Below, piece by piece: positions 2 to 4,978 of a stretch of DNA of 64,000 bases (positions are counted from its first letter, which is position 1; each line of letters begins with the position of its first letter). Under the pieces are notes generated by a model that was not told where the DNA came from, made no database searches, and was given only the letters and a program-made list of their open reading frames with translations. Origin of the DNA: Actinomycetales bacterium (GTDB lineage: Bacteria > Actinomycetota > Actinomycetes > Actinomycetales > CAWJMD01); the NCBI GenBank assembly GCA_047974565.1, contig JBKECN010000034.1, forward strand, positions 128,760 through 192,759, read 5' to 3'. The translations under genes and the position numbers were made by a program.

Positions 2-1759
2 GTGCTGATCAACCCCGACGCTGAAAGCGATCGATGGGGTAATGACCTGTTCCCAAAGGACTTCATTATCAGCCTTCCGAGACCAGCCACATATGTCGGA
101 GCGGAGCGAGTTTTCGGCCGCCCCGCCTTGGAGCACGAAGACCAGGGAGTCACAGGCCTGGACGTGGTTCGTATCGTACCGGACAGCGAGATCTCTGACT
201 TGGTCCCTAGGGGTAAGGCCGCCTTGGCTTCGTGGGAGCCCACCGTCACTGAAACCCTTCGAGCGGCTATGCTCGACTGGGTACTCGCGACCGCAGGCAA
301 GATCCACCGACTTGGTGATGGCATCTCCACCATGTTGGTTCACACGACTCAGCGAATCGCGCAGCAAAATGAACTGGCCGCGGCGATCAGTGGCGAAATG
401 AAGTTGATCCGACAGAGGTGGCGATTCGATCGAGAGTCACTTAGGCCCGAGCTGCTTGAGCGTTGGAACCGCGACTTCCGACCAGTCACAGTAAGCATGG
501 ACGCCTCACTCGACGCTCGCTTCGGCGAGATTGAACCCCACATCGACGACCTGCTCGAACGGGCAGACGGACTCCGCATGCTCGTTCTCAACAGCGAGAG
601 TCCCGATCTCCTCGACTACGAAGCAGATCCACGACTCAAGGTGCTTCTCATTGGCGGCAACCGGCTCAGCCGAGGGCTCACACTCGAAGACTTGACCGTG
701 TCGTTCTACGTCCGTGAGGCGGCGACCTACGACACCCTGCTCCAGATGGGCCGTTGGTTCGGCTACCGAGGCAAATTTATTGACCTTACTCGATTGTGGA
801 CAACTGGAGAGCTAGTCGCGCGTTTTCGCCACCTCTCACTGGTGGAGGAGGATTTGCGAGACCAGATTAAGATCTATGAGCGTGAGAACCTCACACCCGT
901 CCAAATAGCCCCCAAGATCAGGGCCCACCCGGATATGCTGGTCGTGGCTAAGAACCGGATGGGGAGCGCCGAGTCTGTGCGGCAGTCCTATTCCGGCGAG
1001 CTCATCCAGATGACCCGGTTCAAGCTCGACGACGATGAGTGGCTGGAGCACAACCTGACCATCACTCGTGAACTGGTGAGCGCACTGGGACGACCCAACG
1101 GCGTACCGAACGGTCGTGTGGAGCGACCGGCTTGGTCTGATGTACCGTGGGGATACATCGAAGGGTTTCTGCAACGGTTTCGGACCGCGCAGGACGCCAT
1201 GTCCTTCGACGCCGACACAGCAGCACGCTATATCCGTCGTCAGGCGGAACGCCACGGTGAACTGACTAGCTGGTCTGTGGCGGTACAATGCGGCATTCAA
1301 TTGGATTCGACACTTGGCCGATGCAATTTGGGGTTGTCACGCGGCCCGGTCCCGGCGATCGGCCGCAGTCGCCTGAAAGCGGACCCACGATCAATCGGTG
1401 CATTAGTGAGTCCCGCACGCGAGAACAACCTCGCTGCGGCGGATGAGTCGGCGGATCTCACGTCAATTGAGATCGCACGAGCTGCGAAGCTAAGTGACAC
1501 CTTTCCCACCCGTGGTCACGCGCTGCGCTGGCAACGACCGAGCACGCGCGGGCTGCTCCTGATCTACCCCATTAGCCCCTCCTCAAGACCGGGTCCCAAT
1601 GCTAAGAACCGCGAGCCACTATTCGATGACAGTGTAGGCCGACCCCACGTGATCGGAATCGCACTTTCCTTCCCCCCTTCCTACACAGGCGCAACGGTTG
1701 AGTACGTTGCTGGTATGCCGAGCAGCCACGCCGTCAAGCTCGCCGAGGACATCGGTTGA
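2..1759 (+). CDS. Z1 domain protein, C-terminal 585 aa (5' end lies left of the window)
   Basis: The frame is open from the window edge. It contains GGNRLSRGLTLEDLTVSFYVREAATYDTLLQMGRWFGYRGKFIDLTRLW, the helicase-C-like signature block of Z1 domain proteins found in DNA-modification/restriction cassettes. The stop TGA 1757-1759 overlaps the next start (TGATG). Confidence 0.8.
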   Translation: MLINPDAESDRWGNDLFPKDFIISLPRPATYVGAERVFGRPALEHEDQGVTGLDVVRIVPDSEISDLVPRGKAALASWEPTVTETLRAAMLDWVLATAGKIHRLGDGISTMLVHTTQRIAQQNELAAAISGEMKLIRQRWRFDRESLRPELLERWNRDFRPVTVSMDASLDARFGEIEPHIDDLLERADGLRMLVLNSESPDLLDYEADPRLKVLLIGGNRLSRGLTLEDLTVSFYVREAATYDTLLQMGRWFGYRGKFIDLTRLWTTGELVARFRHLSLVEEDLRDQIKIYERENLTPVQIAPKIRAHPDMLVVAKNRMGSAESVRQSYSGELIQMTRFKLDDDEWLEHNLTITRELVSALGRPNGVPNGRVERPAWSDVPWGYIEGFLQRFRTAQDAMSFDADTAARYIRRQAERHGELTSWSVAVQCGIQLDSTLGRCNLGLSRGPVPAIGRSRLKADPRSIGALVSPARENNLAAADESADLTSIEIARAAKLSDTFPTRGHALRWQRPSTRGLLLIYPISPSSRPGPNAKNREPLFDDSVGRPHVIGIALSFPPSYTGATVEYVAGMPSSHAVKLAEDIG

Positions 1760-2745
1760 TGAGCGCTGACACTGAGGCTGCCTGGGCAGCACTCTCTATC
1801 CCGACTCGTGGACTGTCAGCGCTGTTACATCCCGATAGCAGGGAGGTGTGGCTTGCCATCGACGACCGTGGCAGGCGACATTTGCTGGTCGACGCATCTG
1901 GCGCTAACCCTGGCCATGTCTTGGTCAGCACCCACGGACTCAGAGCCGAGACCACGGAAATCTCCGTTGAGAGTGGGCCGCTGAGGGTCTGGGCCGACAT
2001 CGCATGCGTCGACAGCAGCCTTAATCAGACGTTCGTTGCAGTTGCCGAGGATCTTGTTGCCAACGTCACTGTCGCTCAAACACCTCTGGAAGCCGTCAAA
2101 CGGACCCTGCGCACCTGGCGCTGGTTCTGGGGGATCGATCCCAGTCAGATGTCTGACGCTGCCATGCTTGGCCTGTTCGGCGAGATGTGGTTTTTGGACC
2201 GTTGGGCACCGCTCCCAGCCGCCGTCAACGCTTGGCACGGGCCTGCTGGCCTTCGTCACGACTTCTCAAGCGCCGCCGTCTCTGTCGAGGTCAAGGCCAC
2301 GAGTGCTGGCGCCGCCGGCGCGCCGCGACACAGAATCGCGACGCTCGACCAACTGGACGATCCAGAGAGCGGCGAGTTGTACCTGTTCAGCGTGCACGCA
2401 ATTCCCGAGCCCAGTGCCGGTAACACACTGGCCGCCGTTGTTCAGCGGGTACGCTCCCGCGTTGCCAGCGATCCAGGCCTGCTCGATCTACTCGACCGAA
2501 GGCTTGCCCTCGCGGGCTGGTCTCCAGCCATCAACACCCATCAGCAGGTGGGGTACCGCGTCGCAGCGGAACGCCTCTATGTGATCAGCGACGAGTTCCC
2601 GCGCCTCACCCGAAACAGCTTTGTCCCGGGTCCCCCACCTGGTATCGACGACGTCAGTTACACGGTTGACCTCGCAGTCTGTGCCGAGTGGCTCATAGCA
2701 ACCGCGCCGGAGGACGCCTCCGAGAGGCTGCGAGGGTTGACTTGA
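1759..2745 (+). CDS. PD-(D/E)XK motif nuclease-like protein
   Basis: ATG 1759 overlaps the upstream stop. The core RHDF...VSVEVKAT fits the D...(D/E)xK nuclease motif. A position directly after a Z1 gene is the usual arrangement. The family call is from memory and was not searched. Confidence 0.6.
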   Translation: MSADTEAAWAALSIPTRGLSALLHPDSREVWLAIDDRGRRHLLVDASGANPGHVLVSTHGLRAETTEISVESGPLRVWADIACVDSSLNQTFVAVAEDLVANVTVAQTPLEAVKRTLRTWRWFWGIDPSQMSDAAMLGLFGEMWFLDRWAPLPAAVNAWHGPAGLRHDFSSAAVSVEVKATSAGAAGAPRHRIATLDQLDDPESGELYLFSVHAIPEPSAGNTLAAVVQRVRSRVASDPGLLDLLDRRLALAGWSPAINTHQQVGYRVAAERLYVISDEFPRLTRNSFVPGPPPGIDDVSYTVDLAVCAEWLIATAPEDASERLRGLT

Positions 2746-3449
2746 GTATTCGACCACAATCAATTGAGTCACTCACTCTGGCTCGGCATGACCAAAGCGA
2801 CTATCGGGTCACCATCTGGGCCGAAGGCATCGCTCGCCTCGATGGACACACCGGCATCCGACAGGGGGCCTGGGAAAGTCACTTTGACCCAGATTGGTTC
2901 TCGTGGATCGCCAACCACGCAAGGAATATTGAGCCTCGCAAGGTAAAGGCAAATGACTCGGTCGTGACGCTCGTGGTGGAAACCGCACGGGGCCGCTTCA
3001 TATATGAGTCTGGTGCGGCTAGTCAGTCCGAGTCCTTTTGGCTGCTAGCCACATTACTCGAGGGCGTGACGCATCGAGTAGGTTGGATACCCCTCGATGT
3101 CACGGGGGCCAGCGACTTCGCCCGCTGGGCCACCGGCGTTTCGGTGTGGCTGAATCAAGGACGGGCAATCGCGTCCGGCTTCGCCGCTAACGGATCGGTC
3201 GTTGTCCTCGCGGGCGGCCAGGCAAGCACGACAACGTCACAATCACTGGGGGAGCACTACAAAAAGATGCGAACAGAACTAATCGATGACGGTACATTCT
3301 CCATCCATGGCGACCACTTTAGGATTACTCGCCATCTGCATTTCGCGTCACCGTCCGCGGCCGCGAGCGTGCTCGTGGGCTCGAACACCAGCGGGCCCAG
3401 CGTATGGCGAGACTCGAGTGGGCACACGTGGTCTGAACTCGATCTTTGA
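2688..3449 (+). CDS. DUF4357-containing protein (third gene of the Z1 cassette)
   Basis: The C-terminal block GSVVVLAGGQAS...LIDDGTF...HFRITRHLHFASPSAAASVLVGSNTSGPSVWRDSSGHTWSEL fits the DUF4357 pattern. The N-terminal ~150 aa are unassigned. The start is ambiguous: ATG 2688 (58-nt overlap) or TTG 2742 overlapping the upstream stop (TTGA). Confidence 0.6.
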   Translation: MAHSNRAGGRLREAARVDLSIRPQSIESLTLARHDQSDYRVTIWAEGIARLDGHTGIRQGAWESHFDPDWFSWIANHARNIEPRKVKANDSVVTLVVETARGRFIYESGAASQSESFWLLATLLEGVTHRVGWIPLDVTGASDFARWATGVSVWLNQGRAIASGFAANGSVVVLAGGQASTTTSQSLGEHYKKMRTELIDDGTFSIHGDHFRITRHLHFASPSAAASVLVGSNTSGPSVWRDSSGHTWSELDL

Positions 3450-3552
3450 ATCCTTATTGGTGCCGCCCATGATATGCTCGCTGAGAAACGATTATTTCAT
3501 GGTTAAGGTAATTTTCGACATGGAGTTTCTCGCTGGTAGGGCTTTTAAGCGG

Positions 3553-3560
3553 TCAAAGTC
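3553..3560. repeat. Target-site duplication (left copy)
   Basis: TCAAAGTC lies immediately outside the left inverted repeat and is identical to 4971-4978. ISL3 elements make 8-bp duplications. Confidence 0.9.
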
Positions 3561-3587
3561 GGCCCTACTGACGGTTGTGTGGGTGGT
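3561..3587. repeat. ISL3 left terminal inverted repeat
   Basis: GGCCCTACTGACGGTTGTGTGGGTGGT is the exact reverse complement of 4944-4970. Confidence 0.95.
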
Positions 3588-3588
3588 T

Positions 3589-4956
3589 TTATTTGGTGTT
3601 GGTGACTGTTATTTGGGTGGGTAGGGGTGGGCATAGGCCGCTGCGGGTGAGCATGGCCATGGAGATGAGGGCGTGTGGGGTGTGGTAGCCGTTGGCTCGT
3701 TTGGTCAGGGCCCGTAGGTGGGTGTTGGTGGCTTCGCAGCGGGCGTTGGACAGGCCGTGGTCGAGGGTGTTGGTGATCAGTGGCAGGTGGCGGCGGAGTG
3801 TGGCGGCGAGGCGGACCAGGGCGGGCTGGTGGGAGTGGGCGGCCCAGGAGATGGCGCCGATGAGGTAGCGGCGCCCGTCGCGGCCTTTGAGTCGGAACAC
3901 GTTGCGGAGTTGTTCCTTGATCAGGTAGGCGGTGTAGAGGGGGGAGTTGATGGCGCGCAGGTCGGCCAGGGTCTGTTTCTGGGTGAGGGTGAGGTCGACG
4001 GGGTTCTTCACCAATGCCCACCGGGTGCCTTTGAGGTTGGCTGCCCGGGCGTGATGGCCTGCCCGGCGCAGGCGGTTCCACAGGTCGCGGCGGACCTGGT
4101 CCAGGGCGTCGTTGACCCACATGATCACGTGGAACGGGTCCAGGCAGAGCACTGCCTGCGGGGCGTGGGCGGCGACGGGTGCGTGTATCCAGTCGGCGCC
4201 ATCGGCCGAAACGTGGGTGAGTCGTTTCGCGCGGTCGGGGCCCAGCTCGGTGAAGAACGCCTCGACCGTGGCGGCGTTGCGTCCCGGCCGGGCCCAGATC
4301 AGGCGGCCGGTGTCGTGATCGATGACGCACACCAGGTACCGGTGGCCCTTGCGGTAGGCGATCTCATCGATCCCGATCCGGGTCACCCCCTCCAGCAGAT
4401 CCACCCGCCCCGACGCCTCGCGGACCACCCGGTCCACCACCGCGGTCACCGTCCGCCACGCCACCCGCAGCACCGCCGCCACCGTCGAGGCCGGTGCATG
4501 GGCAACCAGCCACGCCACCATGTCCTCAAACCCGCGGGTGTGTTTAGCACCCGGACGGGCCCACGGCACCTGCGCGACCACCACCCCATGCTCACCGCAC
4601 CGCACCCGCGGGGCGTCGGCCTCCAGGAACACCTTCATCACCCCGTGATCCAGGCTCCGCCACCGACGCCGGCCCCGGCCCTGGTCATAGCCCGCACACC
4701 GGACCCCACACCGTGCACACTGGCCCCGAGCCCCGAACCTGACCCGGACCGAGACCACCACCACCCGGCCCCCGACCACCCGCTCGTCATCCTCCAGATC
4801 CACACTCTCGACCACCAACCCGGGCACCCCGAGCATCGCCTGCCATACCCTGGACTCGCGCACGCCGTCGCCTTCCCACGATCCCGACCTTGACACTCGG
4901 AACCGTAACCAGGCCACGGCGTGTCGCACACCCCCCACCAACCACCACCCACACAA
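3589..4956 (-). CDS. ISL3 family transposase
   Basis: The 455-aa ORF has typical ISL3 blocks: CARCG zinc-finger-like N-terminus, IGIDEIAYRKGHRYLVCVIDHDTGRLIW, LCLDPFHVIMW, LSNARCEATNTHLRALTKRANGY. ATG 4956 lies inside the right inverted repeat, so a downstream start (MLGVPGL, 4836) is possible. Confidence 0.92.
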   Translation of the reverse strand: MCGWWLVGGVRHAVAWLRFRVSRSGSWEGDGVRESRVWQAMLGVPGLVVESVDLEDDERVVGGRVVVVSVRVRFGARGQCARCGVRCAGYDQGRGRRRWRSLDHGVMKVFLEADAPRVRCGEHGVVVAQVPWARPGAKHTRGFEDMVAWLVAHAPASTVAAVLRVAWRTVTAVVDRVVREASGRVDLLEGVTRIGIDEIAYRKGHRYLVCVIDHDTGRLIWARPGRNAATVEAFFTELGPDRAKRLTHVSADGADWIHAPVAAHAPQAVLCLDPFHVIMWVNDALDQVRRDLWNRLRRAGHHARAANLKGTRWALVKNPVDLTLTQKQTLADLRAINSPLYTAYLIKEQLRNVFRLKGRDGRRYLIGAISWAAHSHQPALVRLAATLRRHLPLITNTLDHGLSNARCEATNTHLRALTKRANGYHTPHALISMAMLTRSGLCPPLPTQITVTNTK

Positions 4957-4970
4957 CCGTCAGTAGGGCC
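4944..4970. repeat. ISL3 right terminal inverted repeat
   Basis: ACCACCCACACAACCGTCAGTAGGGCC is the exact reverse complement of 3561-3587. Confidence 0.95.
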
Positions 4971-4978
4971 TCAAAGTC
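4971..4978. repeat. Target-site duplication (right copy)
   Basis: TCAAAGTC lies immediately outside the right inverted repeat. Confidence 0.9.

Follow-up and report, generated by a model that had tools for sequence, protein, structure and literature searches.

A Dcm-linked DNA-restriction cassette with a rare two-domain protein in its terminal slot in an Actinomycetales genome

The window analyzed here, a stretch of 64,000 nucleotides from an Actinomycetales bacterium (contig JBKECN010000034.1, positions 128,760 to 192,759), begins with the tail of a horizontally acquired DNA-restriction cassette of a known kind, present in a rare version whose last gene encodes a small two-domain protein that we call P3. 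The cassette is intact, with open frames and conserved motifs, and represents the form linked to a C5-cytosine methyltransferase (Dcm), with a terminal gene different from the AIPR gene of related cassettes. P3 occurs strictly with this cassette lineage, in the very slot where those relatives carry AIPR; judged by its sequence, it is probably a small DNA-binding protein. In light of the evidence laid out below, we lean toward a reading in which the cassette is an intact, Dcm-linked restriction system and P3 its non-catalytic, DNA-engaging subunit, put in place of AIPR.

The cassette and its terminal gene

The contig is 200 kb long and the window starts at its base 128760; the DNA upstream of the window was examined as part of an extended stretch around the cassette (L002, C105:120000-134000) in the window's own genome (G000). 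The whole cassette comprises six genes over ~8.1 kb (G000:C105:124076-132208), with window positions 2-3449 forming its 3′ end. Its head gene encodes the 618-aa Dcm (PF00145, 8.7e-55), which scores 170 bits against the dcm model TIGR00675, above the cut-off of 100.65; next come Vsr, encoded on the strand opposite to Dcm (TIGR00632, 130 bits, above the cut-off of 97.85), and a 470-aa GHKL ATPase (HATPase_c_3, 1.1e-28; MzaB-like, 8e-75). A preliminary description made from the window's sequence had expected a cytosine methyltransferase, a GHKL ATPase and often an AIPR protein as partners, and leftward extension of the contig indeed places the C5-cytosine methylase, Vsr and the GHKL ATPase upstream in the expected order; its remark that the system is incomplete holds for the window but not for the contig, where the cassette is complete. 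When the window's cassette is aligned with seven homologous ones, the N, G1 and G2 boxes of the GHKL ATPase (DLVDNSIAA, DNGTGM and GKFGLGLK), helicase motifs I, II and III, and the D...EVK motif of the DUF4420 protein, in the form RHDF...SVEVK, are invariant across all eight.

The methylase of this lineage carries a C-terminal domain of ~200 aa (L002:5304-5930, equivalent to G000:C105:125303-125929), which recurs in L003:3800-4426, L004:3918-4544, L005:3806-4432 and L007:3800-4426. Its match to MutY spans the entire catalytic domain (PDB 5kn8, E 7e-4, 190 columns), and there is a weaker one to 1kea, an archaeal G-T mismatch glycosylase. An invariant C-x6-C-x2-C-x5-C iron-sulfur loop is present, but the residue corresponding to the catalytic Asp of MutY is Thr. 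One possibility is that the methylase has a fused module for sensing mismatches or lesions, alongside the Vsr encoded by its own gene. Two open reading frames of 467 and 475 aa between recO and Dcm have no family matches and overlap real genes, and were treated as artifacts of high G+C.

Within the window, three plus-strand genes complete the cassette. The first, taken from the list of open reading frames and open at its 5′ end at the window edge, is represented by its terminal part (2-1759); the second encodes the 329-aa, MzaD-like DUF4420 nuclease of PD-(D/E)XK type (1756-2745); and the third encodes P3 (2742-3449). At the first junction (TTGATG, 1756-1761) the sequence GGTTGATGAGC (1754-1764) contains a TGA stop at 1757-1759 that overlaps the starts TTG 1756 and ATG 1759, and at the second (TTGA, 2742-2745) the P3 start TTG 2742 overlaps the DUF4420 TGA stop at 2743-2745, with AGGG sitting 5 nt on its 5′ side. 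The TGATG and TTGA overlaps proposed in the preliminary description are borne out by these two junctions, and its Z1, PD-(D/E)XK and DUF4357 assignments for the three products hold up in profile searches.

A search of 5.8 billion clusters returned 22 clusters of P3 homologues (231-256 aa, mostly full-length, 42-73% identity), all metagenomic, and a search by words limited to the C-terminal domain yielded the same family only. These homologues are mostly 237 aa long and their alignments begin at residue 1, so that TTG 2742, giving 235 aa, is the likely translation start, in place of GTG 2688, which would give 253 aa. A pattern scan of 185,579 species genomes, by a method that misses distant members, detected one relative, in an Actinomycetota metagenome-assembled genome; the family is rare in isolate genomes. 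Wherever the gene preceding P3 can be seen, in 16 places in all (the window and 15 loci, ~13 of these distinct), that gene is DUF4420 and P3 directly follows it, with a 4-nt overlap wherever both genes were called, and this arrangement spans P3 identities that drop to ~36%. The most divergent pair (L024 and L025) has Vsr after P3 on the same strand, and there P3 is therefore internal to the operon. In RefSeq annotation, AIPR occupies the terminal overlapping slot of the Dcm/Vsr-linked form on Agrobacterium pDG3-1d, Rhizobium etli p42f and a Rhizobium sp. plasmid. The two-domain P3 is rare, and its combination of N- and C-terminal domains is found only in this cassette; the earlier view of a DUF4357 protein in the terminal slot as an unusual variant is thereby upheld.

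In four loci (L003:10876-11415, L007:10759-11388, L020:4581-5255 and L018:2210-2488) a further conserved gene lies directly after P3. Its product measures 179-224 aa in the three complete copies, which share 58-72% identity, and displays the GIY-YIG-like motif VYGVW-x6-YVGQT...RRL; the window's genome has no copy.

The two domains of P3

The N-domain of P3 (residues 1 to ~125; 2742-3116, plus strand) belongs to a sparsely populated family: its profile matches only 43 proteins among 1.84 billion representatives, ~25 of which share the N-plus-C architecture at 220-260 aa, the rest consisting of the N-domain only and being DUF6438 by Pfam. The Pfam model itself (PF20033) is matched by 18 of the 40 scanned proteins. 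It does not match the window's own P3, in which the CxGxCPxY motif is absent, yet profile-profile comparison of the P3 N-domain with DUF6438 proteins by hhalign gives 99.6% (E 1.2e-24, 122 columns). By this comparison the N-domain, previously called novel, is a divergent DUF6438 domain and not a novel fold class. DUF6438 had no mention in the literature searched.

The C-domain (residues ~128-235; 3123-3449, plus strand) matches Pfam DUF4357 (PF14267) over profile positions 1-53 of 54 with 53.7 bits, above the 38.4-bit gathering threshold, and is well longer than that 54-position model. It further matches the C-terminal 95 residues of PADLOC PDC-S14 (model positions 215-309 of 320, 1.8e-21), a full-length match including the N-terminal nuclease domain not being obtained for P3, as well as the tail of the PADLOC 'DUF3780' model (3.7e-12), which we read as RAMA because DUF3780-RAMA fusions have been reported (PMC12839542). 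Plasmid-encoded proteins annotated as 'GIY-YIG nuclease family protein' carry matching sequence at their C-termini. In a sample of 51 family members gathered from metagenome loci, all 51 match DUF4357 and 32 also match Pfam RAMA (PF18755; best 3.7e-7), with DUF4357 aligned to approximately positions 47-98 of the 107-position RAMA model; P3-type members are among them, with 18.8 bits for L027 and 13 bits for L018. RAMA has been defined by fusions to URI (GIY-YIG), HNH, ParB and T5orf172 nucleases and to McrB-type ATPases (PMC4738411), and the partners reported for DUF4357, namely GIY-YIG, T5orf172, GmrSD and McrB homologues (PMC4619093, PMC11090510), form a largely coincident set. The DUF4357 identification of the preliminary description is confirmed by Pfam, with the refinement that DUF4357 appears to be the conserved half of a ~100-aa RAMA-like domain. 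One metagenomic protein (L044:7975-9246) contains two such DUF4357/RAMA-like domains in tandem (Pfam DUF4357, 130.6 bits in two stretches).

The AlphaFold2 model of P3, computed from a deep alignment, has a mean predicted local distance difference test score (pLDDT) of 88 and a predicted template modeling score (pTM) of 0.75. In the predicted C-domain, three helices accompany a pair of long antiparallel strands and several shorter ones, which is the secondary-structure pattern reported for the RAMA domain of MPND from its crystal structure (PMC9963953). Ser113, Ser115 and Trp135 of MPND contact the DNA backbone, and alanine replacement of any one of them nearly abolishes binding to double-stranded DNA (PMC9963953). 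The invariant residues of the P3 family, F201, S203-P-S205-A-A and W222, spell the signature F-x-S-P-S-A-A...W and are all kept in the window's P3, whose S203, S205 and W222 would correspond to the MPND contact residues. No catalytic domain or motif is recognizable in P3, and sequence searches of the PDB with profiles of the whole family and of the C-domain found nothing meaningful; matches to 'Cake' designed proteins were dismissed as a 19-residue motif coincidence.

A possible role for P3 and its alternatives

Going by the protein families to which they belong, Dcm would mark host DNA and Vsr would repair the T:G mismatches produced by deamination of 5-methylcytosine, while the two ATPases and the nuclease would together act as a nucleoside triphosphate-dependent restriction enzyme on unmarked incoming DNA. 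In such an assembly, the RAMA-like C-domain of P3 may engage double-stranded DNA, with its invariant S-P-S...W signature in contact with the backbone, and possibly read the methylation state, whereas the DUF6438-like N-domain could dock P3 to the nuclease and motor complex. P3 would thus take over the role that AIPR has in the sister cassettes.

A number of observations weigh against this proposal and keep our preference for it modest. To our knowledge, no component activity has been measured for any Dcm-linked cassette of this kind. No RAMA match of the C-domain family reaches the gathering score of 35.2 bits, and the window's P3 does not match Pfam RAMA either with the C-domain alone (E<=1) or in the search of its own genome (E<=10); since the matches are sub-threshold and this copy lacks a direct one, RAMA membership of the P3 C-domain is remote and transitive. 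The equivalence of S203, S205 and W222 with the MPND residues is based on the S-x-S...W motif pattern and not on an alignment, and a Foldseek search with the whole two-domain model returned no RAMA structure among the top 50 PDB matches. DUF4357 was not classed among DNA-binding domains by an older predictor that works from sequence (PMC5714182), and the P3 family is acidic, with isoelectric points of 4.8-6.5. At residues 219-221 (window 3396-3410) the window's P3 reads GPSVW, compared with GRRAW in at least 90% of the close family, a change that removes two nearly invariant arginines; more distant family members include GP variants, and the change is not clearly a defect. Lastly, the slot itself may be dispensable, because AIPR and P3 are both missing from some related cassettes, those of Priestia and Rhodovastum.

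Several of these features would also suit a regulatory P3, a safety catch that restrains the nuclease and motor or holds the complex on methylated host DNA until foreign DNA is encountered, which we nonetheless consider unlikely. The acidity throughout the family, the lack of a catalytic motif together with conserved residues that are mostly structural, and the last position in a translationally coupled operon all agree with such a function, and a slot that in sister cassettes holds unrelated proteins or nothing is what one expects of a modulatory part; a role in reading methylated DNA has moreover been suggested for RAMA (PMC4738411). There is, however, no evidence of P3 toxicity or inhibition, P3 resembles no known antitoxin, C-protein or DNA mimic in searches of Pfam, NCBIfam and PADLOC, and the data fit a positive targeting role equally well.

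Still less probable in our judgment is that P3 is the orphaned half of a GIY-YIG/RAMA add-on module. The thought arises from the gene directly 3′ of P3 in the four relatives mentioned above, whose product aligns weakly with the YIG...RL region of GIY-YIG-DUF4357 N-domains (hhalign E 3e-4, probability 40%) and which the window's genome lacks; outside this cassette, the P3-type C-domain sits on GIY-YIG nucleases. The GIY-YIG assignment of that gene is weak, however, with no PDB match and no Pfam match on record, and full-length P3 and its 4-nt DUF4420 overlap are kept without it in L004, L021, L023, L024/L025 and the window. Moreover, the two-domain architecture is specific to this cassette, and the window's P3 has an intact frame and retains every family-invariant residue.

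The P3 lineage exchanges the large and opaque AIPR for a two-domain protein of 235 aa, and because one of the two domains is similar to a double-stranded-DNA-binding module of known structure, it offers a much simpler handle on the role of the AIPR slot: P3 is small, confidently predicted, and has three obvious residues to mutate (S203, S205 and W222). The finding also gives a context to two domains of unknown function: DUF6438 may be a docking module, and DUF4357 resembles RAMA. In other respects it is an ordinary horizontally acquired defense island, and it leaves concepts of restriction-modification unchanged.

Genomic setting and comparison with known systems

The cassette lies in an insertion flanked by uppS and recO on the left and by leuA on the right. 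A gap of ~360 bp (G002) or ~140 bp (G001) separates recO from leuA in two genomes of the same genus, and since the two genes are neighbors there, ~11 kb has been inserted in the window's genome; this syntenic comparison, with its two empty sites, confirms the island proposed in the preliminary description. No DUF4420 homologue is present in any of 30 relatives. The G+C content of positions 2-3560 is 0.598, compared with 0.696 for 5000-64000 and 0.687 for the genome, and that of the cassette genes is 0.59-0.64 against the genome's 0.69, consistent with the lower G+C noted beforehand for the first 3.5 kb; a recount of 3481-3540 gives exactly the 24 G+C in 60 nt reported then.

From left to right, the insertion comprises a luciferase-like monooxygenase gene, ~1 kb without recognizable genes, the cassette, an AT-rich end and an ISL3 element. 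The monooxygenase gene (L002:2168-3109), between recO and the cassette, has a host-like G+C of 0.70, and the ~1-kb stretch that follows (L002:3110-4076) has a G+C of 0.65 and no recognizable gene; because both are also missing from the recO-leuA interval of the same-genus genomes, the insertion is composite. The AT-rich, non-coding island end (3450-3552; 103 bp, G+C 0.447, no strand) was searched for a terminator-like site and none was found, and its predicted fold is no better than that of shuffled sequences (z 0.21), with no structured RNA. Directly abutting it is the ISL3-family insertion sequence (3553-4978, minus strand), which forms the leuA-side boundary of the island and was identified by Pfam, NCBIfam and its inverted repeats. 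Its transposase (3589-4956) is intact at 455 aa (Pfam DDE_Tnp_ISL3, 1.7e-61; NCBIfam transpos_ISL3, 269 bits), and its 27-nt inverted repeats (3561-3587 and 4944-4970) are perfect, with 100% complementarity. This copy of the insertion contains no integrase. In L003, a tyrosine integrase and an HTH_17 gene adjoin the cassette, as do a CBASS-like operon (patatin, SMODS/DncV-like nucleotidyltransferase and E1/E2-like Cap2) and an SMC/AAA_23 gene (L003:11751-15602); the surroundings of that cassette are a defense island context.

Among named systems, the closest comparison is with Mza (mzaABCDE; PADLOC 'mza'; NCBIfam NF041931-NF041935), exemplified by the locus on Thalassospira marina pCSC3H3 and reportedly described by Gao et al. 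in 2020. Mza has been credited to the same reference as qatABCD, Upx and AVAST (PMC10855318); it has no mention in the texts of PADLOC 2021, Vassallo 2022 and Millman 2022 (preprint), and a literature search for MzaC and MzaD gave no relevant paper. That the cassette might be canonical Mza with P3 as a divergent MzaE is very improbable and was rejected: the three core proteins find their best PADLOC and NCBIfam matches in MzaB, MzaC and MzaD, but at 252, 431 and 87.7 bits versus equivalog cut-offs of 850, 1500 and 420, the genome contains no match to MzaE/AIPR (NF041935) anywhere, P3 has no PADLOC MzaE match and no detectable similarity to an AIPR protein (hhalign probability 0.1%), and there is no MzaA beside the cassette, NF041931 matching only on contigs C60 and C43, below cut-off. 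The core proteins are thus distant homologues of MzaB, MzaC and MzaD, 3-5 times below the cut-offs and not equivalent to them. In the canonical locus (layout in L108) the sigma-70-like MzaA heads the operon and AIPR likewise fills the terminal slot, whereas the window's cassette has Dcm at its head and differs from Mza in having a methylase and Vsr while lacking MzaA and MzaE.

Enzymes of the CglI/NgoAVII type have an R subunit with PLD and B3-like domains; in contrast, the window's cassette has the DUF4420 PD-(D/E)XK nuclease, with no PLD or B3 match among its proteins, and possesses a GHKL ATPase and P3 in addition. With the single-gene GIY-YIG-DUF4357/RAMA nucleases (PDC-S14), P3 shares the ~100-aa C-terminal domain and its FxSPSAAA...NG...W signature, but the N-terminus is a nuclease domain in PDC-S14 and DUF6438-like in P3. 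Published DUF4357/RAMA fusions involve McrB, GmrSD and URI nucleases (PMC11090510, PMC4619093, PMC4738411). Finally, the RAMA domains of CcrM (PDB 6PBD) and MPND show sub-threshold Pfam similarity to relatives of P3 and an alike predicted secondary structure, with no direct sequence or structure match to the window's P3 itself; and whereas the definition of RAMA drew on an association with adenine methylases, the methylase of this cassette is a C5-cytosine enzyme.

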